From Trichormus sp. ATA11-4-KO1 (GTDB lineage: Bacteria; Cyanobacteriota; Cyanobacteriia; Cyanobacteriales; Nostocaceae), in the NCBI GenBank assembly GCA_019358915.1, contig JAHHIM010000004.1, positions 1 to 64,000 of the forward strand: a stretch of 64,000 nucleotides of DNA, in the 5' to 3' direction. This document shows positions 20,889 to 42,521 of the stretch, one piece after another (position 1 is the first letter of the stretch; each line of letters opens with the position of its first letter). The translations under genes and the position numbers were made by a program. Below the pieces are notes generated by a model, which was given only the letters and a program-made list of their open reading frames with translations, searched no databases and had not been told where the DNA came from.

Positions 20889-22781
20889 CTATGCAGATTT
20901 AAATTCTGTTTTTTCTACCTTGGCTTTAAGAGAAGCAAAATGCTTTCCACCTAACTCTATTTGCCCCTCGGCACATCCGGCTTTTAATCTTTCCACAAGA
21001 TACTCTAAATCATGAGCTATAAAATTTGTACCATGATCTGGCTCTATTAGACCAACCAATGAAACATTTTTCGTCGGTTGATTTGCCAAGCTAGAAATAC
21101 CCAAAAAATTGAATACCCCAGATTCATAAGTACCACAAGGGACTGAAGGGTTGTGAACTCCAACACAATATTCGTTCGGTTTAAACCAATCAAATGCTGG
21201 GTAGCCATGAAAATGAACAATTGGCGCACCATCTTTAATTAATTCTGGTGCATACAAAGCAGCTGCAAGACTAATAGCCAGCATCACATAGATATCATAA
21301 GAAGGTTTGATATCTCCTAAATCTGTATGAATATCCTGAGGTAATTCAAGATATAGCTTTTCTTTCAAACCGATTCTAATGACATCCCTAGCAATATTCA
21401 AGTCAGTCTTATTTGCTCCTGAACGAGAACTAACGAGCCAAATATCAGGGATTTGCTTAAATACATCCTCTCCTTTGATCTGAGTTTTCAGATAACGTCG
21501 ACCTTGTTCATTTTGACGTAGTTCGTTACTGCTAAATCTTGCAACAGCAGACAAGCTTTCCCATTCATGAGCCGTAATTTCTGGCGCACCAAAATATTGT
21601 GGAGGTTCAGCATAAGCTACAAAGCCATAAGAAACACCTGTTCTCCCATTTACGATGACATTGACAATATCTCTGTGAGACTTCCTTTTAATGACTTCAC
21701 TAAGTTTAAACCCAGGAGGAAATAGACCTGTTGATGCCAATTCTTGACCCAATTTCACCAACTTCTTAGCATAGCTAGATTTTTCTGGTTGATACTGCCC
21801 TAATTCAAATCTGTTCAATAAAAGTGGAGCAATTGGCACAAAAATTTTCGGAATTAGTGATTTTAGAACAAATTCTCCTAGTTCTTTTTTGGCAAAAATA
21901 GAGTCTGAAAGATTCATATTTAAAATAGAAATCTTATCAGGAGCAACTCCAATTACAATTTCCGAAAAAGTTCTAACTAGAGTATTCAACCCAATATTTA
22001 TCTTTTGCGTATATGGTGTTTCAGGATTAATGAAATCATGATCTATTTCAGTTAAAACTATTACCTGAGTATTAGTAGGATCTTGGATATATTTGGCTGC
22101 ATGGTCTTCAGCCCAACTACTAAGTCTGGCTATTTTCAAAACTGACATTTTTTGAGTTTTCAATATAAAATTGGAATAATATTTATACCAATTTTCGGCT
22201 AGAAAAATTCCTATTTTTTTGATACAAGAAGGAGGAATCTCTATATTAATAACAGCATTAATTTCGGACATAACTCCCATAAGGTAAAAAGTTTTTTTCC
22301 GGTTAATTATAGGTAATGAAATGTCATACCGAAACTCTGTAATTGCATCATTCCAAGGAATGATGTTGACACCATATTCCCTCATCTGATTTTCTAATTC
22401 TTGGCGGAATTTCAATATTTCTTGATTTTTATAGCTCTTAGGTACAGGTTTAAATGTAACTGTTAACTTTTGAGCCATCATTTTAGGGTCAATGACAGGG
22501 GGCTTATATTCCTTACTTTTTTGACCACAAAATCCTCCAATTAAACATCCAATAGTTTGTAGATTTAGCCCCTGACTCAGAGGTAAAAATGTAGGAACTT
22601 GAGTTTCAGTAATATTCATTTCGCGAATAAAAGATAGAATTTCTGTTTTGTAAGCCATGAGATTTGCCTGAACTTCTGGTGTAATAATTCCCTTGGGAGA
22701 ATGAATATTGAGTTTGTCATTATCAACCCAAAAATTAACACCTTGTTCCATGAGGTTGGTCACGATTTCTGATGCGTTCAT
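20889..22781 (-). CDS. TubC-type N-terminal docking domain fused to an unknown region and a class II aldolase-like C-terminal domain
   Basis: N-terminal GVNFWVDNDKLNIHSPKGIIT...YKTEIL; C-terminal SRSGANK, KPSYD, HFHG, PCGT, DHG. Confidence 0.65.
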   Translation of the reverse strand: MNASEIVTNLMEQGVNFWVDNDKLNIHSPKGIITPEVQANLMAYKTEILSFIREMNITETQVPTFLPLSQGLNLQTIGCLIGGFCGQKSKEYKPPVIDPKMMAQKLTVTFKPVPKSYKNQEILKFRQELENQMREYGVNIIPWNDAITEFRYDISLPIINRKKTFYLMGVMSEINAVINIEIPPSCIKKIGIFLAENWYKYYSNFILKTQKMSVLKIARLSSWAEDHAAKYIQDPTNTQVIVLTEIDHDFINPETPYTQKINIGLNTLVRTFSEIVIGVAPDKISILNMNLSDSIFAKKELGEFVLKSLIPKIFVPIAPLLLNRFELGQYQPEKSSYAKKLVKLGQELASTGLFPPGFKLSEVIKRKSHRDIVNVIVNGRTGVSYGFVAYAEPPQYFGAPEITAHEWESLSAVARFSSNELRQNEQGRRYLKTQIKGEDVFKQIPDIWLVSSRSGANKTDLNIARDVIRIGLKEKLYLELPQDIHTDLGDIKPSYDIYVMLAISLAAALYAPELIKDGAPIVHFHGYPAFDWFKPNEYCVGVHNPSVPCGTYESGVFNFLGISSLANQPTKNVSLVGLIEPDHGTNFIAHDLEYLVERLKAGCAEGQIELGGKHFASLKAKVEKTEFKSA

Positions 22782-22974
22782 ACTTTCAAAATTACCTAAT
22801 TGTTGTAAAGTTTTTGTTTGTTATTCTGTTAAAAATAGTGACATTTAGTAGTGCTGAGTTACCATTTCTTTGGCGTTTCCCCTTAGGAGAAGTTTGCCTG
22901 GAGGTCTCTCGCTCCTTGCTGAAATTACCGGAATGCCTTACCAATGCACTGTTTCCTCCGCACTTTTTTGGTGA

Positions 22975-23280
22975 TTAAATCTGAAATACCTCTGAATCTG
23001 AAGTTTCCAATTCTTCAACTAAACGCTTAGCTAGTAATGCAATGGTGGGATAATGCCACAGCAGCATAGGAGATAGCTTAAATCCCAGCAATTTCTCGGC
23101 TTTATTTGCTAGTAAAATAGCTTGTACTGAATCCAGTCCGTAGCTATCTAAAGGTTCTTTAACATCTATTTCATCGGGTTCAACACTCAACTGTTCAGCA
23201 ATGCAAGAGACTAGCCAAGCTTGAATTTCTTCTACGGTATAAGACTGATTAATGCTTGAATTGGGCATAGATTGATTCAT
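22975..23280 (-). CDS. Free-standing acyl carrier protein
   Basis: YGLDSV phosphopantetheine site, YPTI..LA; acidic tail ETSDSEVFQI. Confidence 0.92.
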   Translation of the reverse strand: MNQSMPNSSINQSYTVEEIQAWLVSCIAEQLSVEPDEIDVKEPLDSYGLDSVQAILLANKAEKLLGFKLSPMLLWHYPTIALLAKRLVEELETSDSEVFQI

Positions 23281-23438
23281 TTATTTACCTCTGGGATAAA
23301 AGTGACTAAATTCTACTGACAGTAGTAAAGTGATATTTAGACTTTCTAGATTTTAATAATGACAAAATGCAACTACTGTCCTTGTATACTTAGCAAAATA
23401 TGCTCATTTAGCTAAGGTATCAATAATATTTTCATAAG

Positions 23439-24788
23439 TTAAATATTTGTTAATTTCCTCTGAATTTTTAACTTACAAAGTTGATAAATTTGGTGCATAA
23501 AATTGTTTACAAGTTCTTCCATCGTATCGCGACTAATTGAAGGCTCAGAAAACACGAAGTTTAACAACATTTTTCCTTGAAAAGTTGAGGCATGGGTAAT
23601 AAACATACCTGCGTACAAAGCATGAGAGCCAACAAAACTGATTTCTTCTAGTGCAAATTCACCGTAAACGCTGGGAATATTGACTTTGCCGACATTAGAT
23701 ACAGATACTGTTGCAGTTACTTGCTGATGGTAAGTTAAATAAAAATTTATGAGATGTTTAGCAACTAAAATCATCTTAAATATATCACCATGTTTGATAC
23801 TAACTTCAACTCTTTGTTTCACCTCTCGTGCTAATTCCCAGAACGATTTATTTATTTGTATGCTATGAAATCCTACAATAGATGAACTCAGTACAGCCAT
23901 ATGCTCATTACTAATTTTCGGTTCTAAATGTCTCCGCAAATCAATATAAGATAGGCAGTTTACTCTAATATTTTTTTTATTATCTTTAGCTATTTCGCTT
24001 GCTACTGTAAACATCATGGCCGCACATAAAGCACTATTGACAGTTGTATTTTCCTGCCGACAACAATTAACGAATTGTTGGGTTAGCTCTTCGTTAAGTT
24101 GCTTATGAATAATATCGCAACTACGCTGTGCAATAGGTTTATACTTTTCAAAACCTAATGTTTTTGGTCGATTCCAGATTTTTTGCAACCCAAGTTGTAA
24201 CAAAAATAATGTGCTAACTATCTTACCTTTCAACCCTTTTGTCCATATAGGTAGTAGTTCCTCTACAGGTGGTAATGGAAGTAAACTAGTAACTGGGTTA
24301 ATGAGGTCACCAGAAACAATTTGCTGACAGTAAGTCAAGATTTCTGCATGAAGTTGGATGGATGATAACCCATCGCCTACGGCATGGTGTCCCGTGGTAA
24401 TCAGGTAATTTACACGGCTGTTACTCTGGAGATGAACCAGAACCGCTCGCATTAAACATTTACTACTATCAATTTCCTGATTCATCTCTTCACGAACGAC
24501 TTCTTGCCACTGCTCATCATCCGACTTTTTTACAACACGCAAAGCAATCTTTGCTGTTCTTTCAGTTTGAAAACCGAGACTATTTCCAGAACGAACAATC
24601 CGAGAATTAAGTCGCGGATGACGACGTTGAATCATGTCTAGAGCCGGTCTAAGAATATCTGCATTGAGGGGTCCTTTGATACGGCTAATAGTTACTATAT
24701 TCCAGGTTTTAGCACGCCTATTTAAGGTTTCCATCACCTGCTCAATACATCCCAGGTTTCTGTTATTAATCATATTTTCCTTCTCCAA
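23439..24788 (-). CDS. Stand-alone condensation-domain / PapA-like acyltransferase
   Basis: RHPRL, HHAVGDG (HHxxxDG), DLRR, SNVG. Confidence 0.88.
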   Translation of the reverse strand: MEKENMINNRNLGCIEQVMETLNRRAKTWNIVTISRIKGPLNADILRPALDMIQRRHPRLNSRIVRSGNSLGFQTERTAKIALRVVKKSDDEQWQEVVREEMNQEIDSSKCLMRAVLVHLQSNSRVNYLITTGHHAVGDGLSSIQLHAEILTYCQQIVSGDLINPVTSLLPLPPVEELLPIWTKGLKGKIVSTLFLLQLGLQKIWNRPKTLGFEKYKPIAQRSCDIIHKQLNEELTQQFVNCCRQENTTVNSALCAAMMFTVASEIAKDNKKNIRVNCLSYIDLRRHLEPKISNEHMAVLSSSIVGFHSIQINKSFWELAREVKQRVEVSIKHGDIFKMILVAKHLINFYLTYHQQVTATVSVSNVGKVNIPSVYGEFALEEISFVGSHALYAGMFITHASTFQGKMLLNFVFSEPSISRDTMEELVNNFMHQIYQLCKLKIQRKLTNI

Positions 24789-24895
24789 ATAATCCTCAGT
24801 TGGAACCTATTAAAAAACTCAAATCAACACTAACTTATGAGTTTTTAATTAAATTGTGCAATGAGATGCTGTAACGAATAAGCGCAATTTGAAGC

Positions 24896-26563
24896 TTAAA
24901 AATTCTTAGAAATCACTGGATGATATTGATGATAAAAATCGGGAAATTGTAAGCCTTGAATTTTCAAGCTTTGTAATCGATATAGAAATGCTGCCCCTGT
25001 CATAATATGATGTGCGACATCAACTACTTTACGATTATTTAAGTCTGCTAAATAGGAACCTTTGATCCAGTTATTGAAGCTGCCCATTGCGGGACCACAC
25101 CAAATTTGATAATCAATTTCCCGACCTTTTTCACCAGAGTTAGACCAACGAGAAGATAATCCAAGATACCAGCGAAAAATTAGCGCCATTTTCAACTTGG
25201 GATTTTTGGCTGCTTGGTTTAATTTATCGGGATTACGTTGAGATAGGTAATTAACTGTTTCCTGCCAAACCGCTTCTAGTCCAGTTCTGAAAACTTGTTT
25301 TTCTAGTTTCTCTCTTTCTGCAACAGGAATGTCTTCAATTGAATCATAGTTTTTGTATAACTCAAACAATTTTTGTGCCCGTAGCGGAAAAAGAGTTCCT
25401 CTTTTAAGAACTTGCAATTTTACTCCCATTTCAAACATATCTGCGGCTGGAGCCATCATCACATCAGCCATCTCTGCTTGAGCCAGTAATTCTTTAGTAT
25501 GTTGTGAAGTTCCAGCCTCAATACAGGATTGGTTAATAGAGCCAGTCACAACATAAGCAGCGCCCATCATAAAAGCACCTAAAGCTGATTGTGGAGTGGC
25601 AATTCCTCCGGCAACTCCAATTCTAACTGGTGTTGCGTAACTATATTTGCTTTGAATTTGGTCTCGTAATTCCAGAATGGATGGCAACAGACAAATCAGA
25701 GGACGATTATCTGTGTGACCACCAGAATCTGCTTCCACAGTAATATCATCAGCCATAGGAATTTTCTCGGCTAAAGTTGCCTGTGATTCACTGATGAGTC
25801 CTTGTTCTACTAATTGTTTCAGAATTTTAGTGGGAGCAGGTTGTAAAAATTTTGTGGCAACTTCTCTTCTAGAAACTTTGGCAATGACTTTATTTTTGAT
25901 TTCGATTTGATTGCCTGAATTCAAATTTAGCCCAGCAGCTCGGTAATAAACAATGTTGTCAGTCAAATCCAAGAAGGCAGATGCTTCTATTGTTCTAACT
26001 TGATACTTAAGATATAAGTCAACAACACCGCGTTCAACAGCAGGTTCACTAGGATTGTGGAGTAAGTTAAAAGCATAAGGGCCTTGAGGTAGGGCTTGCT
26101 GAATACGGTTAATGGCTGCTGCAACACGGGAAGGAGATAAACCCCCAGCACCAAATGAACTCAAAATTTTCTCTTTTCCGAGAGCAATTACTAGTTCTTC
26201 AGAAGCAATACCATGAGCCATTGCACCAGTGGTATAGGCATATTTCACGTTATGAAAATCTAGGAAATTGGGGTCACCTAGCTGTTGTATTTTCATAGAT
26301 GGAACTGCTATAAGCAGTTCCATCTGTCCTATTTTGCCATTATTAACATGAATCCAATGGCCTTCTTGGGTGACACCAATATGTCCTTGATATCTGATAA
26401 TATAGCAAGGTTTACTTAAGTTATTTAACTTGGCTTTAATACCCTCTTCATCAAAAGATACAGTATCTAAATCACCTTGCCAAACCTGATAAGGCATAAC
26501 ACAAAAATCTGATATTTTTAGGCGATTAGTATGTTGATTATTCAGAATATTATTTGTGATCAT
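24896..26563 (-). CDS. pfaD: PfaD/HglA-type FMN enoyl reductase
   Basis: GAMAHGIAS, EADSGGHTDNRP, MAPAADMFEMG, DYQIWCGPAMG. Confidence 0.93.
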   Translation of the reverse strand: MITNNILNNQHTNRLKISDFCVMPYQVWQGDLDTVSFDEEGIKAKLNNLSKPCYIIRYQGHIGVTQEGHWIHVNNGKIGQMELLIAVPSMKIQQLGDPNFLDFHNVKYAYTTGAMAHGIASEELVIALGKEKILSSFGAGGLSPSRVAAAINRIQQALPQGPYAFNLLHNPSEPAVERGVVDLYLKYQVRTIEASAFLDLTDNIVYYRAAGLNLNSGNQIEIKNKVIAKVSRREVATKFLQPAPTKILKQLVEQGLISESQATLAEKIPMADDITVEADSGGHTDNRPLICLLPSILELRDQIQSKYSYATPVRIGVAGGIATPQSALGAFMMGAAYVVTGSINQSCIEAGTSQHTKELLAQAEMADVMMAPAADMFEMGVKLQVLKRGTLFPLRAQKLFELYKNYDSIEDIPVAEREKLEKQVFRTGLEAVWQETVNYLSQRNPDKLNQAAKNPKLKMALIFRWYLGLSSRWSNSGEKGREIDYQIWCGPAMGSFNNWIKGSYLADLNNRKVVDVAHHIMTGAAFLYRLQSLKIQGLQFPDFYHQYHPVISKNF

Positions 26564-26613
26564 CAGAATTTTAGCCTTTTAATTACAAGAAATTTTTCTA
26601 GCGATCGCATCAC

Positions 26614-29986: not shown

Positions 29987-32900
29987 TTAAATCTCTCCTA
30001 CTTGCTTGTGCAAAATAATTCCTCTAGCTCCGAGCATTTGTGAATATACTTTTCCTTGCTGATCATGGATGATGAAGTCTGCAATCACACTACTTACTGT
30101 TTTTGCTTTTATTTCACAAGAAACGTAAAAAGGTTGATTATGTGGAGTCGGGGCAAACTGTTCATATTTATCTAGTTTGCCGGGTAAACAACCTTCTTGA
30201 TAAAAATGCTGCATCCAAATCCACAATGCATGCATGTTCAAGTCAGTCATGTAAGGATTTACCCATTGAACAGGAAATTGTCCTTGTTCTTTTTCGCTAA
30301 GTTTTTGCCACAAACATTCTGTGGTAATTTTTTCAGGCGTAATATTTAAGACTTGTTTAACTGACTGGAATGAAGCTCCATGAAATAATGAGGTTCCTCC
30401 ATTTTGATAGAAATCTTTGCCTGTGATGGTAATAACATGGTCTGGAGTTAGATTGATTGCTTCATAAATAGGCGCAGGAGGAATTGTTCGCAGCAGATTA
30501 AGTTGAGTACTAAAATGGTAATGAATTTTTCCTGCTGGATTTTTACTCCAAATTTTAGCTTTTATTTCTACTTGCTCCGATTTAGTTTTAGCGACTTCTT
30601 CGATTTCTAAAACATATTCTTTAGCTAAGTTTTCATTAAAGGTAATACCCTTCAAAATCTTGAAATCTGTGTAACTAAATAATCGATAACCTGGATACAT
30701 TTGTTCGCAGGAATTGATGATCCATGTAATGGCACAAGTAGCTGGCAATACTGGTAAACCAGCGATTTTATGATCATATAAAAATGGATTGGCTTCTAGT
30801 GTAATTTGGCGACGGAGGTGATAAGTTCGCAGTTCAGAATCCAATTCTGTAGGTAGTGGAACCAATGGACTACCAATCACAACTTGTGTAGTATGTTTAT
30901 GGGCTGGATGCAGTTCATTGACTAGCATCTGTGCCCCAATTTCCAGGGGAATTGTCTCGATATTGCGTTCAGCAAAAGCTTTTTTTAATTCTGGAGATAC
31001 CATCCCACTATCCCAAGGGCCCCAATTAATTGCTACTACATGACAATGAGGATGATTGAGTTTGAAGAGATGGGCTGATTTGTTGAGAATTTCGTTAGCG
31101 ATCGCATAATCTGACTGTCCCACATTTCCGTAGAAACCAGCCACAGAGGAAAATAGAACTAAACATTGCAGTTGGCTGGGTGGTACACATTGCAGCAGGT
31201 TTTCTAAGCCTTTAACTTTAGCAGCGTAAACCGTTTCAAAATCTTTGACTGATTTTCTCTCAATCCGCTTATCAGCTAGATTCCCCGCTCCGTGAATAAT
31301 GCCTGTAATTGCGCCTAAACGCTCAACTGCACTAGCAACTTGCTCAACCAGCGTCATCGTATCGGTGACATCCACACTCAAGTATTCGGCTTGTCCACCC
31401 GCCTGCTCAATAGCTTGTAAGGTAGCAGCAATTTCCCGCCTAGATGCAATAGCCTGAAACTTTTTCTGCACCATTGCAGGTGTGGGCTTGTCTCCTTTAG
31501 CGACAAAATCCTCCATAATTCGCTTTTTCAATTCCGCTTCACCAACATAGCCTTCAGCCCACACAGGCTCTGGCTCGGCGGCGGAACGACCTAGGAGAAT
31601 AAATTTGCATTGATAACGCTGTGCTAGTTTAATCACACACTCAGCCGTTATCCCTTTTGCACCACCACTAACAAGAAATACTTGGGATTGGGGATGGGGG
31701 ATTGAGGATTGAAAACTAAAAATTTCCCCTAATTCTGGTTCACATACTAACGTTGTGCGTCCTTGTGAACTGTATCCCACTTCCACAACTAATTTATTAG
31801 GGTCGTGAAGTTCAGCGAGGATATGCTGTACCGAGGTTTGAGCATCTAAATCGGGACTGAGGTCAAGCGCTCGACAAAATACGGGTTCCCATTCCTGGTT
31901 TAAAGTTTTAGTGAGTCCGAACAGTCCACTACTAATGGTACCAAAGTTAGTTTTTTGTCCTAATCCGAATTCGCCATCAAGACGAGCCACTGTGAGAAAA
32001 CAACTACGTCCTTGATTAGCTGCTTGATTCAGGGACTCTTTGAGATATTTAGCGAGCAGAAAGACGTGGCGCAAAATAGCTTTTTCGCTTTCTAGAAAGC
32101 AGACACCATGACTTGTCTCTTCGATGCTGGGAGGATTCAGGTGGATAAAGGCGGCGATCGCCCCATATTCAGTCGCGATCGCGGCTAACTGTTGTTGCAA
32201 ATGCTCCTCGCTCAAATCTGCCAACACCACACGATTGATGTCTCCCGGTAAAGGTGACTGTTGACCAATCAAGCTTGGGGGAAAACTCAAAACCACGATT
32301 TTCCAGCCGCACTTAATTAAAGTTTCCGCTAATTTCGTGGTGGTGAGGGTACCATCATCGGTCAGCAAGGCAATATGCTGTGCAGGTAAGGTGAAATCTA
32401 AAATATCGGGTTCAGGAAGAAACTTGAGTCTGATAAGACTGCGGCGAATTAAGGATTGGGGGAGAGGAAAATCCTCCCCCTGCTCTTGTTTGGTTTCAGG
32501 TGGCTGATTTTGTAGAGACGTTACTTGTGGTGTCTCTATGAATAGCATTTTTTTTTCTGCCACTTCCGTTTGCTGTTGAATGTACTCAACTATTTGTCCC
32601 AGGGTACGCTGTTGAGCCAGTTCCTCAGGATTCGGCTGGGGTAAGTTGGGATAGATTTCTAATAATGCTCCCAAAATCTCCACACGTTTAATGGAATCAA
32701 TCCCCAAATCAGCTTCAATATCCATCGACAGCTCTAACATTTCGCTGGGGTAGCCTGTTTTATCACTGACAACGGAGAGCAAAGTTTGACTGAGGTTGCT
32801 CAAATCAATGGAGCGAACTGGAGAAGATGTAGACGCGATCGCGGCTGACTCTGGGGTGGGAGATGTTGAGCTTTCTTCTTCCTGGTCTTCTTCTAATACT

Positions 32901-35900
32901 TCATTTATGATTGCGGGTACTGCTGAGTTTTCTGGAGCCAAAGTCTTGATATACTCAATTATTTGCTCAAGGGTGCGTAGCTGCCCCAGTTCTTCGGGAT
33001 TCGGCTGGGGTAAGTTGGGATAGATTTCTAATAATGCTCCCAAAATCTCCACACGTTTAATGGAATCAATCCCCAAATCAGCTTCAATATCCATCGACAG
33101 CTCTAACATTTCGCTGGGGTAGCCTGTTTTATCACTGACAACAGTGAGCAGGGTTTGACTGAGGTCGTTTAAATCAATGGCTACTGGTGGCGCAGATACT
33201 ATCGTTGCAGTTGCAGAATGATTCTCTTTTGGCGTCATCATCTCAACAACTGGTTTTATTTGATGATTGGCGTCATTACCGTTGCCGTTACCATTTCCGT
33301 TACTATGACCATTAGTGCCATTCAACTCAGATGTAGTAGCGATCGCATCGGTTGTGGCTGCAACAGGCTGATCTGCTGAAGTCAAACTCTCTTGCTCATT
33401 GAACAGTGGTATCAGACTGTTTTGAGCGACATTATCAGAGGTAGGCAGTTGATGCTGCTGGAGTAATTGGAAAAAGTGGTTAGTGTATTCCTGTTGATAG
33501 AGCAAATACTGCTCATGGATGCGGAGGCTGTCAGCTTGATGATCATGAAACCGCATGATGCTACGTTCTGAACTGGAAATTGCCAGTTGCCGGGTTGACG
33601 TTTGTTGCTCAGTGAATTTACCATTTCCCCACAACAAATGCTGTTGTTGCATGAGTTGGAAGAAGGTTTTGGTGTATTCTGTTTGATGCTTTAAAGATTG
33701 TTCATGAACCTGCAAAATATTGCGTTGATGGCGATTGAACTCGATCAGGGTGTACTCTAAGTTATCTATAGCTCTTTGGTAACTCAAAGATGCTTCTGAA
33801 TTGGTTGACATAGACTTGATATCCAGTCCGTCTAGTCCATCTGATTGACCGTTTTTCATACCATTGACTGCTACCCTCTTTGTAGGCAAGCTATCAGGTG
33901 GGAAAAGGTTTGGTGTGGCTAAGTCCTCATTGGCCACTGCGGCTGATTGATTACCGTTGCTAACGGGCAACTTTGCTTGATGCCCATTTTGTAGAGCTTT
34001 TGCAAACGATTGCTGCGTTTTTTCCGAGACATAGTTAGTGCTATTTAAGCGGACATTCAAGACCTGATTTTTCGGAACTGCGGGGATTTTGCTCTCTAGT
34101 TGGTAGGGATCTAGGTTGAGCAAAGGCAAGCCAGCAACACGTAATTGCACAACAGCTTCTCGCAAGGCGCGATCGCTATCCTTGTGCGGATTAGCATTGA
34201 GAGCGAGAGCTATATGCGGGTGATCGCTCAGAATATCTTTAACTAAATTGGTGAGTGTGTTACGCGGCCCAAATTCAATGAAGCAATAACCGCCATTAGC
34301 ATAAATGTTTTCAATCTCCTGCTGAAACAGCACCTGATTCCCTAGATGTTCTTGGAGGATTTTTTGAATAATTTTTGGTTCAGTTGGGTAAGGCTGCCCT
34401 GTAACGTTGGTGTAAACCGGAATTTGTGGCTGGTTGAAAGTAACTTTTTCGATGGCTTTGGCAAAGGGTTTCTGTGCATGAGCCACTAAAGATGTGTGAA
34501 AAGCTGCCGAAACTTTCAGCAATACGGTATGGAATCCTTGAGCTGTCAAAGCCCCTGCCACTTTGGCAATTTCTGCTTTTGCTCCTGCCAGCACTACCTG
34601 CTGAGGGGAATTTAAGTTAGCAATATTCACTAAAGGAAAATTTTGGATCAGTTCTTTAACCTGATTCACATCCCCTTTCACCGCCAGCATCGCTCCGGCA
34701 TCAAACTGGGGGTCTTTTGGTGCAGCCATAGCTTCACCCCTAGCTTTGACCAAGAAGCAATAATCTTTCTCACTCAAAACGCCCGCAGCCCACAGCGCAG
34801 TCAGCTCTCCAAAGCTATGTCCGGCAACAAAATCTGGTTTAAATCCAGCTTGTTGGAGGATTTTGTACAAACCAACGCTAAAAGCCCCAATCGCCGGCTG
34901 TGCATATTCTGTCATCTGCAAAGCTTCTATCTGGGCTGCTTTTTGTTCTGGATTGAACACGGGAGCCGGGAAAACGACCTCTGATAAGGTCTTTAAACCG
35001 TCTTGGAAAAGACTGTCCATCTCAGCATAAGCCTGCCGTAGACAAGGAAAGTTAATGGCCAATTCCCGACCCATTTCCAAGTATTGCGAGCCTTGTCCGG
35101 AAAATAAAGCAACTACTTTCCCTTCTGTGGTGATGCCAGTTTTGCGGTAGTAAATTCCTTGGGGATGTTCCCAAGATTCTTCTTGTGGCTGGTTTCTTAG
35201 CAGGTCAATAGTTTTTTGTAACAAGTCGCCAGCTTGCGTTAGAGAATCAACCACAAACCCCACTCTGGCATCTGTGACCGGCATTTCTAAAGATTTACTA
35301 GCCGCTATCAGTTCTGCATAATGCTGTTCTCTTGCATCGGATTGTAATTGCTGTTGGATTTCTTCACAGCGCGATAACAACTGCTCCGGTGTTGTTGCTG
35401 ATAAAACTACCGCCGGGGAACTATGATGTATGCGATAAGAACTGTCGTGTTCGCTGTTGTATTCTTCCAAAACCACGTGATAGTTGGTGCCACCAAAACC
35501 AAAAGCACTGACTCCCGCACGCCTTGGCTGGTCATCGGTGGTAATCCAAGGTCTGGTTTCCGTATTTAAATAAAACGGGGAATTATCAATGTTGAGTTTA
35601 GGGTTGGGTCGGGTGACATTAATCGTGGGTGGCAATACTTTGTGATGCAGAGCCAAAGCAGTTTTAATTAAACTTGCTGCACCCGCAGCCGCTTTGGTAT
35701 GTCCAATCTGTGATTTAACGCTTCCCAGGGCAATATGTTGTTTTTTAGGGTTATTTTCGCCAAAAACTTCTTTAATAGAGGCAAATTCGGTGGGGTCTCC
35801 CACCATAGTGCCAGTACCATGTGCTTCAACTAAACCGACACTGGTAGGCGACAATCCTGCATCTTCATAAGCACGGCGTAAGGCTCTGATTTGACCTTCT

Positions 35901-37072
35901 GGACGAGGGGCATAAATGCTCTTATAACGACCATCACTAGAAGTGCCAATACCTTTAATAACCGCATAAATACGGTCATGATCGCGCTGGGCATCCTCCA
36001 GGCGTTTTAGCACTAACATCCCTATACCTTCACCCAACATCATGCCATCAGAGTCGGCATCGAAAGGTTTAACATTTTCACCTGGGGAAACAGCAGGGGT
36101 TTTGCTGAAGCCCATATAGGCAAAAATGGAGTTGTCGGTATCAACCCCACCTGTGATCATCATGTCAGCATGACCTGCAATTAGCTCACTAATTGCTACT
36201 TTGAGCGCACCTAATGAACTAGCACAGGCAGCATCTATTACACAGTTTGTACCCCCTAAATCTAGGCGGTTAGCAATTCGTCCGGCAACTACATTAGCTA
36301 GTATTCCCGGAAAGGCGTTCTCATTCCATTGCACATATGCGCTTTTGATTTTCTCAACTATGTTTTGTGTATCTTCATCAGATAAGCCACTGCTTTTGAG
36401 AGCTTTTTCCCAGATGGGATACTGCAATCTAGCACTTAGCGGCATCGCCAATTGCCTACCTATGGCCACACCCAAAACTATGCCAGTGCGTTGGCGAAGC
36501 TGATCATAGATATCGCTATTAAACTTTTGAGATTCGCCATAACCGGCATCTTCTATCGCAGCTTTAGCAACGACTAAACTTAGTAATTGAGATATATCTG
36601 TGACTTCTAATATATTGGGAGGTAGCCCAAATTCCATCGGATTAAAATCGATGTCTGGGATAAATCCACCCCGTTTACAGTAAGTTTTATCAGGCGTTTT
36701 GGGGTCAGGATCGTAATAATCATCTACGTTCCAACGGGAAGGCGGAACATCAGTAATACAATCAACTTTATGAATAATATTTTCCCAATATTCTTGTAAG
36801 TTTTTGGATTGGGGAAATAGAGAAGCCATGCCGATAATAGCAATGTTTATCTTTTGCAGTTGTGTATTTATTTCGTTAGTAGTTAACGGTACCGTTCTCA
36901 CCATAATTTTTTTACCCTGTATAAGCTTAAGCAGAGATTTTTCACAATTGCTTATTTCATCTTGCAACTGTTCTAATTCAGCTTCAATTCTAGAAGCAGC
37001 CATGACTTCATCTTCACTATTGTGCTTGCGAAATGTAGGTATGTAGATAAATTTGTTGACACTATCGATCAA
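29987..37072 (-). CDS. PfaA/HglE-like iterative PKS: KS-AT-ACP-ACP-KR-DH (HglE+F+G-like fusion)
   Basis: DAACASS, HGTGT, GH; AT GHSFG and AFH; two LGIDSIK; KR GGAKGI and YAIAN; DH HKIAGLPVLP. Confidence 0.93.
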   Translation of the reverse strand: MIDSVNKFIYIPTFRKHNSEDEVMAASRIEAELEQLQDEISNCEKSLLKLIQGKKIMVRTVPLTTNEINTQLQKINIAIIGMASLFPQSKNLQEYWENIIHKVDCITDVPPSRWNVDDYYDPDPKTPDKTYCKRGGFIPDIDFNPMEFGLPPNILEVTDISQLLSLVVAKAAIEDAGYGESQKFNSDIYDQLRQRTGIVLGVAIGRQLAMPLSARLQYPIWEKALKSSGLSDEDTQNIVEKIKSAYVQWNENAFPGILANVVAGRIANRLDLGGTNCVIDAACASSLGALKVAISELIAGHADMMITGGVDTDNSIFAYMGFSKTPAVSPGENVKPFDADSDGMMLGEGIGMLVLKRLEDAQRDHDRIYAVIKGIGTSSDGRYKSIYAPRPEGQIRALRRAYEDAGLSPTSVGLVEAHGTGTMVGDPTEFASIKEVFGENNPKKQHIALGSVKSQIGHTKAAAGAASLIKTALALHHKVLPPTINVTRPNPKLNIDNSPFYLNTETRPWITTDDQPRRAGVSAFGFGGTNYHVVLEEYNSEHDSSYRIHHSSPAVVLSATTPEQLLSRCEEIQQQLQSDAREQHYAELIAASKSLEMPVTDARVGFVVDSLTQAGDLLQKTIDLLRNQPQEESWEHPQGIYYRKTGITTEGKVVALFSGQGSQYLEMGRELAINFPCLRQAYAEMDSLFQDGLKTLSEVVFPAPVFNPEQKAAQIEALQMTEYAQPAIGAFSVGLYKILQQAGFKPDFVAGHSFGELTALWAAGVLSEKDYCFLVKARGEAMAAPKDPQFDAGAMLAVKGDVNQVKELIQNFPLVNIANLNSPQQVVLAGAKAEIAKVAGALTAQGFHTVLLKVSAAFHTSLVAHAQKPFAKAIEKVTFNQPQIPVYTNVTGQPYPTEPKIIQKILQEHLGNQVLFQQEIENIYANGGYCFIEFGPRNTLTNLVKDILSDHPHIALALNANPHKDSDRALREAVVQLRVAGLPLLNLDPYQLESKIPAVPKNQVLNVRLNSTNYVSEKTQQSFAKALQNGHQAKLPVSNGNQSAAVANEDLATPNLFPPDSLPTKRVAVNGMKNGQSDGLDGLDIKSMSTNSEASLSYQRAIDNLEYTLIEFNRHQRNILQVHEQSLKHQTEYTKTFFQLMQQQHLLWGNGKFTEQQTSTRQLAISSSERSIMRFHDHQADSLRIHEQYLLYQQEYTNHFFQLLQQHQLPTSDNVAQNSLIPLFNEQESLTSADQPVAATTDAIATTSELNGTNGHSNGNGNGNGNDANHQIKPVVEMMTPKENHSATATIVSAPPVAIDLNDLSQTLLTVVSDKTGYPSEMLELSMDIEADLGIDSIKRVEILGALLEIYPNLPQPNPEELGQLRTLEQIIEYIKTLAPENSAVPAIINEVLEEDQEEESSTSPTPESAAIASTSSPVRSIDLSNLSQTLLSVVSDKTGYPSEMLELSMDIEADLGIDSIKRVEILGALLEIYPNLPQPNPEELAQQRTLGQIVEYIQQQTEVAEKKMLFIETPQVTSLQNQPPETKQEQGEDFPLPQSLIRRSLIRLKFLPEPDILDFTLPAQHIALLTDDGTLTTTKLAETLIKCGWKIVVLSFPPSLIGQQSPLPGDINRVVLADLSEEHLQQQLAAIATEYGAIAAFIHLNPPSIEETSHGVCFLESEKAILRHVFLLAKYLKESLNQAANQGRSCFLTVARLDGEFGLGQKTNFGTISSGLFGLTKTLNQEWEPVFCRALDLSPDLDAQTSVQHILAELHDPNKLVVEVGYSSQGRTTLVCEPELGEIFSFQSSIPHPQSQVFLVSGGAKGITAECVIKLAQRYQCKFILLGRSAAEPEPVWAEGYVGEAELKKRIMEDFVAKGDKPTPAMVQKKFQAIASRREIAATLQAIEQAGGQAEYLSVDVTDTMTLVEQVASAVERLGAITGIIHGAGNLADKRIERKSVKDFETVYAAKVKGLENLLQCVPPSQLQCLVLFSSVAGFYGNVGQSDYAIANEILNKSAHLFKLNHPHCHVVAINWGPWDSGMVSPELKKAFAERNIETIPLEIGAQMLVNELHPAHKHTTQVVIGSPLVPLPTELDSELRTYHLRRQITLEANPFLYDHKIAGLPVLPATCAITWIINSCEQMYPGYRLFSYTDFKILKGITFNENLAKEYVLEIEEVAKTKSEQVEIKAKIWSKNPAGKIHYHFSTQLNLLRTIPPAPIYEAINLTPDHVITITGKDFYQNGGTSLFHGASFQSVKQVLNITPEKITTECLWQKLSEKEQGQFPVQWVNPYMTDLNMHALWIWMQHFYQEGCLPGKLDKYEQFAPTPHNQPFYVSCEIKAKTVSSVIADFIIHDQQGKVYSQMLGARGIILHKQVGEI
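32628..33142. repeat. Identical 146-bp direct repeat encoding the two ACP cores
   Basis: 32628-32773 matches 32997-33142, offset 369 bp. Confidence 0.85.
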
Positions 37073-37371: not shown

Positions 37372-37647
37372 TCAAGAATTAGTCTCGGAATCATCATCTT
37401 TTTTTCTCGTTTTTGCCTGTTGCTGAGTAGCAGCTAATAGCTTCTGCTCTAGCTCACTAGTACTCATACCAAGTTCAGAAGCTGTTTTATTTTTCCACTC
37501 TTCTAGCTCCATATCATGTTGATTTAGCCATTCATGCACTGCCAGGCGTGCCATCTCTGCTTTGCGAAGAGTCTGGCGAGATGCATGAAAAATTAGCCTC
37601 TTATTATCAAAACTTGGTAATGAGAGCATGAATCGCTGTAATCTCAT
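37372..37647 (-). CDS. Small protein, ribbon-helix-helix-like regulator
   Basis: MRLQRFMLSLP beta-strand pattern followed by helices (KAEMARLAVHEWL); start moved to ATG 37647. Confidence 0.55.
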   Translation of the reverse strand: MRLQRFMLSLPSFDNKRLIFHASRQTLRKAEMARLAVHEWLNQHDMELEEWKNKTASELGMSTSELEQKLLAATQQQAKTRKKDDDSETNS

Positions 37648-38379
37648 TTTCTCTATGCTCTTTAGAGGGCAATAACTATCAGTTCTGCATTTATTCAAAA
37701 TCTGATTTATTAGTATCCCATACTGTAAAGTTTAATTTAATAAAATTGCACAAAAATTGCATATATGCAATTTTCGATGTTTTTATTACAGCTAAAGATT
37801 GCATATTAGTAATAGAGTTTTCAGTGTTTATTCTACTTGTTGTTGTTATATCTTTTTACGTATAAATACTTTGAACTTTGATATATTGAATTATCTAATT
37901 GGCTTTAACATCTGTCCAAGGATTGATTCTATTTGAGGGAATATTTTAAAAGTTAACAATTACTGTAAACAAATCAATAATACTTAAAGCTAAAGTTGTA
38001 GAAATCAGCACTTCGTGAGTGAATTAATATAGCATATGTTAGTAATTTGAGATGTTAACAGCGAGAATTAATAGCATACTTGTTCTTCATTAAAACAAGT
38101 ATTTAGCCTGGTATCGTGACTTTTAAAACATTTATCTAAAATTATTTGTACATCCATCTATCTATTAGTTGATTTATTCAAAAAAATATTGTAATAAATG
38201 AATTATTTATATGAAATGTAAACTTAGTTACTAATAGCTCTGTCTAAAGAGAGAAAAAATAGAGGTAATTAATCATGTATCAAAATGTTCATCAACTAAA
38301 ATATTTAAAAGCAGTCACTTATGAGATTTATTGCCAAAATTAACATGTGCCATATTGCCAATTATTTATTCTTAAATAT

Positions 38380-38420
38380 GTTGCATATGGGTTGCAATTG
38401 AGTATCAACATGTTTATTGT
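38380..38420 (+). promoter_or_regulatory. Putative promoter/operator for the regulator-devBCA arm
   Basis: GTTGCA-N5-GTTGCA with TTGCAA (-35), 17 nt, TATTGT (-10). Confidence 0.65.
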
Positions 38421-38631
38421 ATGTGATGGAAAATGTAATTAACTACTGTTTGTTTACCAACTGGGAGAGATGTAGAGAAACATAAAAATATAAATTGACT
38501 CAATTATCTCATATCTCTCTTCATGGGAAATTCCACAGTATGACAGTGCAATTTAAATTATGATGCATCCGTGTTGCTTGAAGCATTCTACATAAATTTA
38601 GACTGACACGAAACTATAAGGGTTTGCTGGC

Positions 38632-38955
38632 ATGAGACTATCTGCGTTAGATCCACTCATACCGCTAAATGAGTTAAGAGAAGAACTTCTGAAGCTGCCG
38701 AAAGGCTACTCATTTTATGAACAAGAGATCATAGATTTCTTATCCCGACGAAGATGGGGTGAGAGCAATCGCCGCATTGATCGAACAACTTTCTGGCGGT
38801 GGAGGAATGATAACGGAATTGAGCATAAAAAAGTATTCAGCCGATTGGATCTTTTGAAACTTTGCCAAATTTGCGACCATTACAGAATAGATGGAACTCG
38901 TAGTGAATACTTAGCGATGATGAAAAATAAGAAAAAGGTAGCACTGAACAAGTAA
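38632..38955 (+). CDS. Small basic protein, putative HTH (MerR/excisionase-like) DNA-binding protein
   Basis: IDRTTFWRWR...FSRLDLLKL pattern. Confidence 0.6.
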   Translation: MRLSALDPLIPLNELREELLKLPKGYSFYEQEIIDFLSRRRWGESNRRIDRTTFWRWRNDNGIEHKKVFSRLDLLKLCQICDHYRIDGTRSEYLAMMKNKKKVALNK

Positions 38956-39080
38956 GAATACATGTTGCAAAATAGTTCTACTGAAAGCCAATACTGCTAA
39001 TGAGTTGATGGATACTTATTGATAGTTTCATCCTCAACATCCACCAGTGGTGCAGATGCCAAGGCAGTCTGTAGAGTTTT

Positions 39081-39110
39081 TTACGGCAACCTCACAAGGG
39101 TTGCCGTAGA
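39081..39110 (+). terminator. Stem-loop between the HTH gene and devB
   Basis: tacggcaacc-tcacaag-ggttgccgta. Confidence 0.5.
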
Positions 39111-39147
39111 TACTCACACAGTACAGTAGACATCACAAACTTCGGGA

Positions 39148-40377
39148 ATGACCAAAAAAGTGTTGAGTAATAAAAAGAGTATGGTACCCAAACAAAGGCA
39201 GTCATTCACAAAACCTGTAAATCCAGGGTCAATAATTTTGGCAATTAGTATAGCTGTAGCCACTGGTACAGTTTCTTTTTACAGCTTTTTACGATTTCGT
39301 TCAACTTCTAATTTGGAGCCTCCAACTGCTACACCAAGCAGTTCTCCTGCGATTAATGCTGTTGCGGCTTTAGGACGTTTAGAGCCTCAAGGCGAAGTTA
39401 TTCGTTTGTCTGCGGCCAATTCCCAAACGGGCGTTCGGGTGGCAAAACTTTTGGTTAACAAAGGCGACTGGGTATCTCAAGGACAAGTGGTGGCAATTCT
39501 TGACAATTACTATACTCGGCTTGCAGCCTTAGAAAAAGCTCAAAAACAAGTTTTAGTGGCTCAAGCTAATCTCAATCAGGTAAAAGCGGGAGCAAAAGCC
39601 GGAGATATTTCGGCACAACAAGCGACAATTGCTCGTTTAGAAGCTGAGTTACGGGGAGAAATTTCCGCACAACAAGCGACAATTGCTCGTTTAGAAGCTG
39701 AGTTGCAAAATGCTAACAGCGAAAATCGTCGATATCAACAGTTGTACAGAGAAGGTGCTATTTCAGCTTCTGAGTCAGAAGCTAGGCTTTTGCGAGTTGA
39801 TACTGTGCGACAGCAGCTCAATGAAGCCAAAGCTGCTCTTAATCGTACAGTAGAAACTCTGCAAAAGCAGTTAAACGAGGCTGAAGCTAGACTCAATAGT
39901 ATTGCTGAGGTTCGGCCTACCGATATACAAGCAGCACAAACTGACATTGAAAGTGCGATCGCCTCAGTCAAACAAGCTCAGGCTGACTGGGATTTGAGTT
40001 CTGTGCGATCGCCTATAGATGGTCAAGTACTCAAAATTAATACTCGTCCAGGAGAACTTATTGGCAATACAGGAATAGCTGACTTAGGACGCACACAACA
40101 AATGTACGTAGTTGCAGAAGTTTATGAAACTGATATTCAAAATGTGCGTCTGGGTCAGTCAGCGATTATTACTAGCAATGCTTTTTCTGGAGAATTACGC
40201 GGAAAAGTTACAGATATTGGTTTGCAGGTTAATAGACAAAATATCTTTGATAATAATCCACAAGCCAATACAGATAACAAAGTAGTTGATGTCAAAATCC
40301 GTATCGATCAACCAGCAGATAACCCACAAATTACCACTCTGACTGATTTACAGGTGCAGGTACTCATTAATATATAA
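39148..40377 (+). CDS. devB: DevB-family membrane fusion protein
   Basis: ALGRLEPQGE, coiled coil, SPIDGQVL, AEVYETDI; a paralog rather than necessarily the devB ortholog. Confidence 0.9.
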   Translation: MTKKVLSNKKSMVPKQRQSFTKPVNPGSIILAISIAVATGTVSFYSFLRFRSTSNLEPPTATPSSSPAINAVAALGRLEPQGEVIRLSAANSQTGVRVAKLLVNKGDWVSQGQVVAILDNYYTRLAALEKAQKQVLVAQANLNQVKAGAKAGDISAQQATIARLEAELRGEISAQQATIARLEAELQNANSENRRYQQLYREGAISASESEARLLRVDTVRQQLNEAKAALNRTVETLQKQLNEAEARLNSIAEVRPTDIQAAQTDIESAIASVKQAQADWDLSSVRSPIDGQVLKINTRPGELIGNTGIADLGRTQQMYVVAEVYETDIQNVRLGQSAIITSNAFSGELRGKVTDIGLQVNRQNIFDNNPQANTDNKVVDVKIRIDQPADNPQITTLTDLQVQVLINI

Positions 40378-40531
40378 ACTCTCAAAGAGCTAGTTGAAAT
40401 TTAAACGCAAAGATACGCAAAGAATTCGGTACGAATTAATGAAATGTGTACTTAGCATTTTTTCAAGTTTATTTACGCCACTTCTTAGCTGTTACTTATC
40501 ACCTGTCACCTATTCCCTATGAGGTTACTAA

Positions 40532-41704
40532 ATGATTCTCAATATACCTCTAGCTTGGTTACAATTAGTCCGACAACGAGCTCGTTTTCTTGTTGCTTTA
40601 GCTGGAATCGCTTTTGTTTCTGTTTTAATGTTTATGCAAATTGGTTTTCAGGATGCACTCTATGCAAGTGCTACACAATTGCATAATAACTTGCAAGGAG
40701 ACTTATTTCTAATAAGTATCCAATATCAATCTTTAACATCCAATCAAAGCTTTCCTCGTCAGCGTTTGTTCCAGACTTTAGGTTTTAATGAAGTTGAATC
40801 CGTTAGACCTTTGTATGTACAATTTGCTAAACTAAAGAACCAAGATACTGGCATCAAATACCCAATATATGTACTCGGATTTGATCCAGTAGAATCAATT
40901 TTTCAATTGCCAAATATTCAGGAAAATCTTCATTTACTACAACTCCCTAACAAGGTGTTATTTGATAGTGCTTCTCGAAAAGAGTTTGGGCCAATTGCTC
41001 AAAGTTTTTCCCAGGGAAATAATGTAGGATTAGAGATATTTAGCTATACTGCTTTAGTTGGTTATAAGGTGGAAATTGGCGGCTTATTTAGTTTAGGTCC
41101 TTCTTTTGGAGTTGATGGAAATTTAATTGTTAGTACCTCAACTTTTCTGCGAATATTTCAAGATCGCTCTGTTCAAAATATAGATATAGGTTTAATTAAG
41201 CTTAAACCTGGTACTAACCCTCAGAAAGTTTTGCGGGATTTGTTAGCCAAGTTACCTAAAGATGTAACAGTAATGACTCAGCAGGACTTTATTACTCTAG
41301 AAAAAAATTATTGGACTTTAAGAACACCTATTGGGTTTGTATTTGACCTCATGGTGATTATGGGTTTTGTTGTTGGCGTTATCGTTGTTTATCAGATTTT
41401 ATACAGCAATATTTCTACTCATTTAGCTGAATATGCAACGCTAAAAGCAATGGGATTTAAAAACAAATATTTATTAAGTGTAGTTTTTCAACAAGCTTTA
41501 ATTCTAGCATCTCTGGGTTATATTCCAGGTTTTGCTATATCTATAGGTCTATATGATGTGGCCAAAAATGCTACTGGATTACCTATCTTCATGAATCTAC
41601 AAAGGTCAATCATAGTGTTAATTTTTGCTGTTTCCATGTGCTTGATTTCTGGTTTCTTATCTACAAATAAATTACGAAAAGTAGATCCAGCAGATATTTT
41701 TTAA
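40532..41704 (+). CDS. devC: DevC-family ABC permease
   Basis: IPLAWLQL, EYATLKAMG, DPADIF. Confidence 0.92.
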   Translation: MILNIPLAWLQLVRQRARFLVALAGIAFVSVLMFMQIGFQDALYASATQLHNNLQGDLFLISIQYQSLTSNQSFPRQRLFQTLGFNEVESVRPLYVQFAKLKNQDTGIKYPIYVLGFDPVESIFQLPNIQENLHLLQLPNKVLFDSASRKEFGPIAQSFSQGNNVGLEIFSYTALVGYKVEIGGLFSLGPSFGVDGNLIVSTSTFLRIFQDRSVQNIDIGLIKLKPGTNPQKVLRDLLAKLPKDVTVMTQQDFITLEKNYWTLRTPIGFVFDLMVIMGFVVGVIVVYQILYSNISTHLAEYATLKAMGFKNKYLLSVVFQQALILASLGYIPGFAISIGLYDVAKNATGLPIFMNLQRSIIVLIFAVSMCLISGFLSTNKLRKVDPADIF

Positions 41705-41735
41705 TCGTTAACAAGGAACATTGGTTTATTTCAAT

Positions 41736-42521
41736 ATGAAAGCAAAATCTATTATTGAGATTGAAAGCCTTAATCAATATTTTGGTAATAAAAAACTAAA
41801 AAGCCAAATATTGTTTGATATTAATTTGATGATTAAACCTGGTGAAATTGTGATTATGACTGGACCTTCAGGTTCAGGAAAAACAACTTTACTAACTTTG
41901 ATTGGTGGCTTACGTTCCATTCAAGAGGGAAGTCTCAAATTTTTAGGACAAGAACTTTATGGAGCCAGCAATGAAAAATTAGTACAAGTCCGTCGTCATA
42001 TTGGCTATATTTTTCAAGCTCATAACTTATTGGATTTTTTAACGGCTCGACAGAACGTCCAAATGACACTGGAGTTACACAAAAATATTCCCGAATGGGA
42101 AGCTCGTCGTAAATCAGAAGCGATGCTTCACGCTGTTAAATTAGAAAATCGAGTAAATTACTACCCATCTGATCTCTCAGGAGGACAAAAGCAACGGGTA
42201 GCGATCGCTCGTGCTTTAGTCGGTTCTCCCAAATTAGTCTTAGCCGACGAACCCACAGCCGCCTTAGATAGTAAATCTGGACGAGATATCGTCAACCTAA
42301 TGCAAGAGTTGGCTATAGAACATAATTGTGCCATCTTAATAGTCACTCACGACAACCGTATTTTAGATGTTGCAGACCGAATAATTTATATGGAGGATGG
42401 CCGACTAATCAAAGAAGTTATCTGCAATCCTGACAGGGAGACATCAGGAGAGCTTATATGTCAGAAGACAGAGGACACTTTGACTAGGCTCAGTGACTAC
42501 ACACTTCGACAAGCTCAGTGA
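41736..42521 (+). CDS. devA: DevA-family ABC ATPase
   Basis: GPSGSGKT, LSGGQ, DEPT; tail extended by repeat-derived sequence. Confidence 0.92.
   Translation: MKAKSIIEIESLNQYFGNKKLKSQILFDINLMIKPGEIVIMTGPSGSGKTTLLTLIGGLRSIQEGSLKFLGQELYGASNEKLVQVRRHIGYIFQAHNLLDFLTARQNVQMTLELHKNIPEWEARRKSEAMLHAVKLENRVNYYPSDLSGGQKQRVAIARALVGSPKLVLADEPTAALDSKSGRDIVNLMQELAIEHNCAILIVTHDNRILDVADRIIYMEDGRLIKEVICNPDRETSGELICQKTEDTLTRLSDYTLRQAQ

Follow-up and report, generated by a model that had tools for sequence, protein, structure and literature searches.

A 64,000-nucleotide stretch of the genome of Trichormus sp. ATA11-4-KO1 (contig JAHHIM010000004.1, positions 1 to 64,000; here called the window) carries at positions 20889 to 42521 a lipid synthase locus that is related to the heterocyst glycolipid (HG) island hgl and ends in other genes. 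This raises the question of how its acyl chain is released and which lipid is made. The answer that we favor, and to which we assign an even chance, is that the locus encodes a second iterative lipid synthase of the hgl-like type together with a DevBCA exporter of its own. Its chain would be released via a docking-domain protein of predicted aldolase-like fold as an odd-chain 1-hydroxy-2-ketone or 1,2-diol, esterified to a wax ester by a PapA5-like enzyme, and exported.

The docking-domain protein, encoded at the end of the cluster (Table 1), is present in a single copy in the genome. A β-hairpin docking domain (TubC_N) was found at residues 5 to 54 of its 630 amino acids, and the AerJ docking domain matched the N terminus in Foldseek. 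The AlphaFold2 (AF2) model, built on an alignment of 79 homologs, reached a predicted local distance difference test score (pLDDT) of 92. All 17 Foldseek hits at an E value of ≤0.001 belonged to the class II aldolase family, and the matches included rhamnulose- and fuculose-1-phosphate aldolases and ribulose-5-phosphate epimerase. In the alignment, S454-G455, S494-x-D496, H523-x-H525, C549, and E580-x-x-H583 of the C-terminal half are invariant. Counterparts of the aldolase motifs GNxS, ITxSG, PSSE, HxH, and NHG follow in the same order and are invariant in 78 to 79 of the 79 homologs. H523, H525, and H583 are the putative counterpart of the three-histidine metal site, consistent with a class II aldolase/adducin fold in the model. 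In FucA, the Ser/Gly residues form the phosphate pocket and the acidic residue is catalytic. Against PDB and Pfam, the 630-residue core matched by sequence or profile only in the docking domain, the ESM Atlas gave no usable match for this protein, and the genome contains no match to Pfam Aldolase_II.

Both the predicted layout and the position of the protein are those of the NglG family. An N-terminal TubC docking domain is combined with a class II aldolase-like C-terminal domain, as in Supplementary Table 10 of the nostochloroside study (PMC10849952), and the enzyme stands after the last acyl carrier protein (ACP) of a polyketide synthase (PKS) cluster without a known termination domain. According to excerpts of that study, NglG has aldolase templates at residues 437 to 607 behind its TubC domain and several hundred homologs. 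It was proposed as the terminator, with a reductase acting next, for the C21 1,2-diol of the nostochlorosides, a chain built from C16 plus two extensions, with a C20 chain before termination (PMC10849952). In the ngl (pks3) cluster, NglG (Npun_F3362) is likewise the terminal docking and aldolase-like protein after the last ACP, and a DevC is encoded in the cluster. However, the excerpts describe a fatty acyl-AMP ligase (FAAL), a halogenase, a modular PKS acting on a C16 starter, and glycosylation for ngl (PMC10849952), whereas the window encodes an iterative Pfa-type synthase. Unlike ngl, the window locus encodes an acyltransferase, and its cluster holds no reductase or glycosyltransferase gene. 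Compared with the proteins that end 29 cyanobacterial loci, the 630-residue protein shows 53 to 62% identity; many of these loci have the ngl layout, and 19 encode a ketosynthase (KS) in which a His is exchanged for Gln. Nostoc punctiforme possesses a window-type locus as well: Npun_R1287 falls into the 90% cluster of P0015, a protein that shares 74% identity with that of the window. A transcriptome (RNA-seq) table for this organism lists R1287 as a TubC protein, R1288 as a condensation protein, R1289 as an ACP, R1292 as PfaD, and F1297 to F1299 as devBCA; in the rows seen, the base means of window-type genes are about 50 to 780, versus about 6100 for nglG (PMC10849952). Npun_R1287-F1299 offers a tractable model locus.

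Gene order in relatives was followed in two samples. Among 301 genomes of the order, there were 28 full-length matches to the 630-residue protein including that of the window, and the 27 other loci were fetched; the second sample comprised 151 genomes of the family, which are kin, so that counts are not independent. In all 27 loci, an ACP immediately precedes the NglG-like enzyme (26 with an acidic tail, 1 as a FAAL-ACP fusion). The tail (e.g., SESEIFEI) ends the ACP in all 26 loci with a separate partner, was also present on 28 of 28 PKS proteins preceding the enzyme in a second set of loci, and was absent from five starter ACPs. The acidic tail of the free ACP in the window is therefore likely, judged from these sequences, to be a docking motif. 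PfaD is encoded at 21 of the 27 loci; another 5 are modular PKS clusters that start with a FAAL and also carry desaturase, halogenase-like, glycosyltransferase, and reductase genes. One locus (L055:4806-8660, genome G266) encodes a FAAL-ACP-NglG-like triple fusion of 1,284 amino acids, followed by a sulfotransferase; it possibly makes a sulfated diol lipid and is the simplest system for an assay of the enzyme. No thioesterase was found beside the NglG-like enzyme at pfa-type loci among the neighbors scanned. A ketoreductase-type gene follows the enzyme in 13 of 27 loci, and 8 of these genes are HgdA-like, with 63 to 71% identity to the copy on contig C33 of the Trichormus genome. A further copy (L176, G284:C23:23000-36100) is nested in the clade of the window synthase and ends in HglB, with neither an NglG-like nor an acyltransferase gene. 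A thioester reductase can thus stand in place of the terminal module, an argument that both have the same function, chain release.

A preliminary description of this DNA had assigned release to acyl transfer. The acyltransferase carries the HHxxxDG motif and a PapA_C domain and matches the PapA5 structure 8s6l (E value, 8e-24); it scores under the NCBIfam PapA5 cut-off (84 versus 396 bits) and so lies outside that subfamily. PapA5-like enzymes are established to take acyl chains from carrier proteins, so that the HHxxxDG enzyme might itself pass the chain to an alcohol or amine, while the docking-domain protein modifies or supplies the acceptor. In the 151 family genomes, the NglG-like enzyme occurs in 73 and the acyltransferase in 71; both occur in 61, lying ≤6 kb apart in 57 (57 of 89 NglG-like loci), and in 10 genomes the acyltransferase was present but an NglG-like match was not. 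We nevertheless consider this form of release improbable. The docking domain sits on the 630-residue protein and not on the acyltransferase, which is present at 11 of the 21 PfaD-carrying loci and absent from the other 10, all of which retain the ACP and the docking-domain enzyme, as well as from the modular clusters examined. It is often duplicated or triplicated, as tailoring genes are. Because the acyltransferase is optional, esterification is likelier than release, and comparison of the loci makes an accessory, esterifying role more likely. The docking-domain enzyme, which we propose to be the chain-release enzyme, is the likelier terminator because it directly follows the ACP in all 27 loci and also occurs in unrelated PKS clusters. 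The mycobacterial phthiocerol dimycocerosate pathway shares an HHxxxDG acyltransferase next to a PKS and an exporter, but its synthase type, release chemistry, and exporter all differ; there, PapA5 makes the wax ester of a long diol, phthiocerol.

The gene inventory of the preliminary description was borne out. All open reading frames (ORFs) were found at the coordinates in Table 1, the domains of both arms, apart from the DNA-binding domain assigned to the 107-residue protein (see below), were recovered with Pfam, NCBIfam, and a motif check, and the claim that the locus has its own DevBCA held, with each subunit over its NCBIfam cut-off. The synthase motifs are intact, namely, KS Cys-His-His, acyltransferase (AT) GHSFG, two ACPs, a ketoreductase (KR), and a dehydratase (DH). 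Translation probably starts at the ATG at position 37003, since homology to relatives begins near residue 24. The 2,361-residue protein spans HglE/F and HglG of the same genome, and the chain-length factor (CLF)-AT protein has no HglD-type KS partner. Like the Pfa synthases of polyunsaturated fatty acids, the locus encodes PfaA-, PfaB-, and PfaD-type proteins; in contrast to them, no FabA-type dehydratase/isomerase domains, such as those of PfaC, were detected by Pfam in the window ORFs, and a polyunsaturated product is therefore not expected.

In Anabaena PCC 7120, the canonical hgl island consists of hglT, hgdACB, hglEFGDCAB, hetN, and hetI. The Trichormus genome has such a set elsewhere, as shown by whole-genome BLAST and Pfam: contig C29 carries hglE/F, hglG, a fused hglD-hglC, hglA, hglB (ACP plus thioester reductase), and a HetN-like short-chain dehydrogenase/reductase (SDR), and the end of C33 carries a GT4 gene, three GT2 genes, hgdA, hgdC, hgdB, and a ParB-like gene. 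The GT4 gene is presumably hglT, as judged from its family, size, and position. Two nifH copies over the cut-off and hetR are present as well. Against its own canonical set, the window locus shows 70 to 77% identity in the KS-AT, KR-DH, and PfaD domains (PfaD, 71% to the C29 copy) and 55% in CLF-AT, and DevBCA-type export and an HglB-type ACP are common to both. However, an HglD-type KS, a thioester reductase, HetN, and a glycosyltransferase such as HglT are not in the window cluster, which ends in an ACP and an NglG-like enzyme, with a PapA5-like acyltransferase. Pfam found no thioester reductase, stand-alone SDR, phosphopantetheinyl transferase, or glycosyltransferase among the 45 window ORFs scanned. 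The list of missing hgl genes in the preliminary description therefore stands, except that half of hglB is present, as the free ACP shares 60% identity with the ACP domain of HglB from this genome. The canonical set also disposes of the objection that this might be the only hglE locus of the genome.

A FastTree phylogeny of four domains (KS-AT, KR-DH, CLF-AT, and PfaD) from 28 loci, with 7 of 35 loci omitted for want of all four, united the window locus and the second islands from its family in one clade (support, 0.999); the six canonical islands, C29 among them, formed another (support, 1.0). The rows of this tree did not include the sequences of PMC11804610. That study described hgl-like islands (hgdCB plus hglEAFGCA in five ORFs) as widespread second islands (PMC11804610, Perez Gallego et al. 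2025). Its excerpts agree with the window locus in the five-ORF content (DevB, DevC, the fused HglE/F plus HglG synthase, CLF-AT, and PfaD), the separate clade, and the occurrence as an additional, smaller island in a heterocystous genome (PMC11804610). Judged by gene content and tree, the locus is of this published type; "non-canonical" was correct, but the cluster type is not new. The main text of PMC11804610, as far as available, does not mention the ACP, acyltransferase, docking-domain enzyme, and small genes found here, and a literature search on the end genes or the product of the cluster returned only PMC11804610 and PMC10849952. What is usefully added here is the link to NglG, with its prediction of a product class, the evidence for an accessory acyltransferase, and the operator-like box described below.

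The earlier view that the locus makes a lipid other than HG agrees with the conclusion in the excerpts of PMC11804610. Alternatively, the island might supplement the ordinary envelope glycolipids of heterocysts or akinetes, with HglB, HglT, and HgdA acting in trans, or make rare odd-chain HGs. The HglB-like free ACP, the G284 copy ending in HglB, and the existence of the odd HG27 and HG29 would fit this idea, which we rate as very unlikely: no HG was associated with the island, and it is the sole island in a non-heterocystous Raphidiopsis (PMC11804610, parts available). Moreover, the HG27 diol is listed for A. variabilis, which has no island, and not in the columns for A. cylindrica, Umezakia, and N. 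spumigena, where the protein occurs. HG27 was rejected as the product since it does not track the island. As side observations, G284 has two PfaD islands, both of which include a thioester reductase, and lacks a nifH match at an E value of 1e-100, and genomes G094 and G043 have a canonical-type island and no nifH match.

In the pathway that we favor, HglEFG, HglC, and HglA would build a reduced chain in the C24 to C30 range, as in HG synthesis, which would then move to the free ACP, the acidic tail of which would dock on the β-hairpin domain. At the metal site, a phosphorylated ketose such as dihydroxyacetone phosphate would form an enediolate; this would be acylated, possibly via the invariant C549, and then cleaved, so that one CH2OH carbon is added. 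The ketone may stay or may be reduced in trans by the HgdA-type enzyme of the genome; according to excerpts of PMC6692557, loss of hgdA raises the keto form of HG. A chain that arrives as a 3-oxoacyl group would give a 1,2,4-oxygenated product. The acyltransferase would add a second chain, as PapA5 does for phthiocerol, DevBCA would export the ester to the cell surface, and the 107-residue protein may control both arms through TTGCA-N7-TGCAA boxes.

Several points weigh against this pathway. The Foldseek TM-scores are low (about 0.5 of target; root mean square deviation, 7 to 13 Å), which is attributed to insertions, and hhalign against 13 cyanobacterial aldolase II proteins gave an E value of 0.44, no better than 14 controls. 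The terminator role of NglG is itself a hypothesis in the excerpts of PMC10849952, and the link to it was drawn from architecture and ngl-like clusters and not from the sequence of NglG (Npun_F3362). The relatives are kin, HglB is kept as well in 6 of the 27 loci, no reductase gene is in the window cluster, and the only HgdA-like gene of the genome is on C33. Excerpts of PMC11804610 tie no HG to hgl-like islands and leave the product open in 2025. Finally, the same fold includes the iron oxygenases NovR, TqaM, and POD (Foldseek E values, 0.003 to 0.007), and a relative in G201 has an intact, active terminal KS-AT-ACP before the enzyme, which suits a β-keto substrate. An iron/O2 oxygenase could hydroxylate C2 of a 3-oxoacyl chain and remove C1, giving a product one carbon shorter and still an odd-chain 1-hydroxy-2-ketone; HG chains carry a 3-keto group (PMC6692557, in the parts available), and a ferredoxin gene lies within the N. 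punctiforme copy. We regard such an oxygenase as unlikely, however, because in ngl-type clusters the first His is lost from the last KS (Gln in 19 of 30 loci), the domain in G266 is fused to FAAL-ACP without a KS, and there is no variation in the residues that correspond to the phosphate pocket of aldolases. In the six islands outside the Nostocaceae in which HglB and the ACP/NglG-like pair occur together (L036, L040, L042, L044, L047, and L024), often with sulfotransferase and GT2 genes, the gene content points to two release routes on one synthase.

The docking-domain family extends beyond these clusters. Homologs without the docking domain were found at 49 non-cyanobacterial, Dadabacteria-type loci, with a diacylglycerol-kinase-like gene (42 loci), PlsC (32), and a histidine phosphatase (21) as neighbors. 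These lipid-backbone neighbors fit a putative diol analogue of phosphatidic acid. The dock-less genes (L086 and L088-L135) adjoin the rpsB-tsf-pyrH-frr block, and this neighborhood suggests a core membrane-lipid role. A few distant homologs are named: a Thermoplasmatales archaeon, Moranbacteria, Rubrivirga, Bacteroidota, and Pseudomonas. Long-chain 1,2-diol lipids are known from Thermomicrobia, where they are membrane lipids, and from Roseiflexus. A broader proposal, which we put forward only tentatively and think more probably wrong than right, is that about half of the sampled Nostocaceae-family genomes hold an unrecognized pathway to a surface lipid, with a Pfa-type synthase ended by a new class of metal-dependent acyl-ACP:ketose-phosphate C-acyltransferase/lyase making 1,2-diol lipid backbones, that members of this enzyme family make the backbones of diol phospholipids in Dadabacteria and in further uncultured lineages, and that a new regulator family acts via a TTGCA-N7-TGCAA operator. 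The product of the second hgl island is a question posed in 2025, and for the way in which bacteria build long-chain 1,2-diol lipids there is only the NglG hypothesis. If the two are linked, there is a concrete product to search for (odd-chain hydroxyketone or 1,2-diol esters), which HG-targeted screens would miss, and a small soluble enzyme with named putative catalytic residues for assay. Since NglG-like genes occur in 73 of the 151 family genomes, such a lipid would be common in cyanobacteria and might serve as a biomarker.

The locus had also been said to have its own regulators. The support is indirect and comes from a conserved operator-like box, TTGCA-N7-TGCAA, newly described here before the synthase and the 107-residue gene; the helix-turn-helix (HTH) assigned to the 107-residue protein was not confirmed by profile or fold. 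The protein had no Pfam or NCBIfam family, no useful PHROG, and a best PDB profile E value of 0.069; its model gave no Foldseek match at an E value of 0.001, no DNA-binding fold was recognized, and an Atlas MerR row at 0.84 is a lead only. Matches to the protein were found in 21 of the 301 genomes, 18 of them strong. The spacer in the window holds 3 sites at ≤1 mismatch, versus 0.19 in shuffles (0 of 300 reach 3), a figure flattered because the motif was chosen from the window itself. In 12 of 12 family genomes, with three loci of another layout left out of the scan, the devB-to-synthase region contains 1 to 4 sites; 0 of 300 shuffles reached the site count in 10 of these genomes, 4 of 300 did in G149, and 36 of 300 did in G198. 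A site lies ≤600 bp before the 107-residue gene in 17 of 18 loci, mostly at 170 to 290 bp, also where the gene has moved off the cluster; the remaining locus is that of G094, with one PfaD and no NglG-like match. No box was found before the canonical hglE. Conservation of the box before both the 107-residue gene and the synthase suggests that the protein is an autoregulated regulator, and the box offers a way to learn when the cluster is switched on.

Alternatively, another regulator of the LysR or a metal-responsive type may bind the box, with the 107-residue gene merely one of its targets, a reading that we rate as a serious possibility though short of even. Excerpts of the only study on the box that was found describe this string as a nickel-responsive motif upstream of sodF in Streptomyces (PMC3219662), the 107-residue protein has no match to a DNA-binding fold, and one of its loci (L141) has no site. 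In addition, tandem boxes occur at 11-bp spacing, which is typical of LysR sites. However, where the 107-residue gene lies at unrelated loci (3 genomes) or beside another PKS cluster (3 more), the sites have moved with it, and where a genome has no match to the protein, its synthase locus has no site either (6 of 6 loci). In the 3 genomes with the other PKS cluster, which belong to another family (L143:6977-14316, L144, and L145), the gene and the small ORF stand as a divergent pair ahead of this lipid cluster (KS, GT4, and KR-ACP-thioester reductase) and of a β-propeller gene, with three tandem boxes of 11-bp period. Plain TTGCAW was rejected as an enriched motif, its count in the window being below chance (124 versus 151); only the N7 palindrome is enriched. 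Two further motifs do not discriminate: NtcA-type GTA-N8-TAC strings occur in the control region of the window as well as in the canonical regions, and DIF1 is missing from both. The small ORF beside the synthase probably starts at a later ATG than listed.

Table 1. Features of the lipid synthase locus, in window coordinates
Feature	Position	Strand	Basis or remark
NglG-like protein, 630 aa; docking domain, middle domain, and aldolase-like C-terminal half (predicted)	20889..22781	-	Pfam TubC_N, AF2, Foldseek
Free ACP, HglB-type, 101 aa, acidic tail SDSEVFQI	22975..23280	-	Pfam PP-binding
PapA5-like HHxxxDG acyltransferase, 449 aa	23439..24788	-	Pfam PapA_C and Condensation; HHAVGDG at 134
PfaD/HglA enoyl reductase	24896..26563	-	TIGR02814, 664 bits (cut-off, 449)
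HglC-like CLF-AT, 1108 aa	26614..29940	-	PfaB-family, over cut-off
Fused HglE-F-G iterative synthase, 2361 aa, KS-AT-ACP-ACP-KR-DH	29987..37072	-	TIGR02813 (PfaA model), E 0
Perfect palindrome TTGCA-N7-TGCAA	37258..37274		255 bp before probable synthase start
Small conserved ORF	37372..37698	-	Homologs 64-71% identical; no family
TTGCA-N7-TGCAA, one mismatch	37746..37762		Just upstream of small ORF
Perfect TTGCA-N7-TGCAA and overlapping weaker site 11 bp on	38381..38408		251 bp before 107-aa gene
107-aa conserved, mostly helical protein, candidate box regulator	38632..38955	+	AF2 pLDDT 89.5
DevB/HgdB membrane fusion protein	39148..40377	+	TIGR02971, over cut-off
DevC/HgdC permease	40532..41704	+	TIGR01185, over cut-off
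DevA ATPase	41721..42521	+	TIGR02982, over cut-off

The GC content is modestly lower at the ends of the cluster (32 to 36%, versus 42% in the genome), mostly in intergenic DNA. Converging on the cluster end, positions 18417 to 20698 encode a class III aminotransferase and an HGLS-family dioxygenase; the pair is not kept beside the cluster in relatives and probably serves lysine or amine catabolism. A 443-residue protein with a signal-like N terminus and no Pfam or NCBIfam family match is encoded at 16741 to 18072. Positions 52284 to 55753 hold a toxin-antitoxin-like run of small ORFs, which includes an aspartyl-protease-like gene, a PIN domain, and a Uma2 nuclease, and an ndhF-ndhD-chp CO2-uptake operon (813 to 5844) adjoins a transposase fragment at the contig start. 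Elsewhere in the genome (G000), hglD is fused with hglC and hglE with hglF in the canonical set (L001:10348-15087), seven DevB/DevC paralog sets occur beyond that of the window, and other modular PKS genes lie on C20 (three) and C15 (two).

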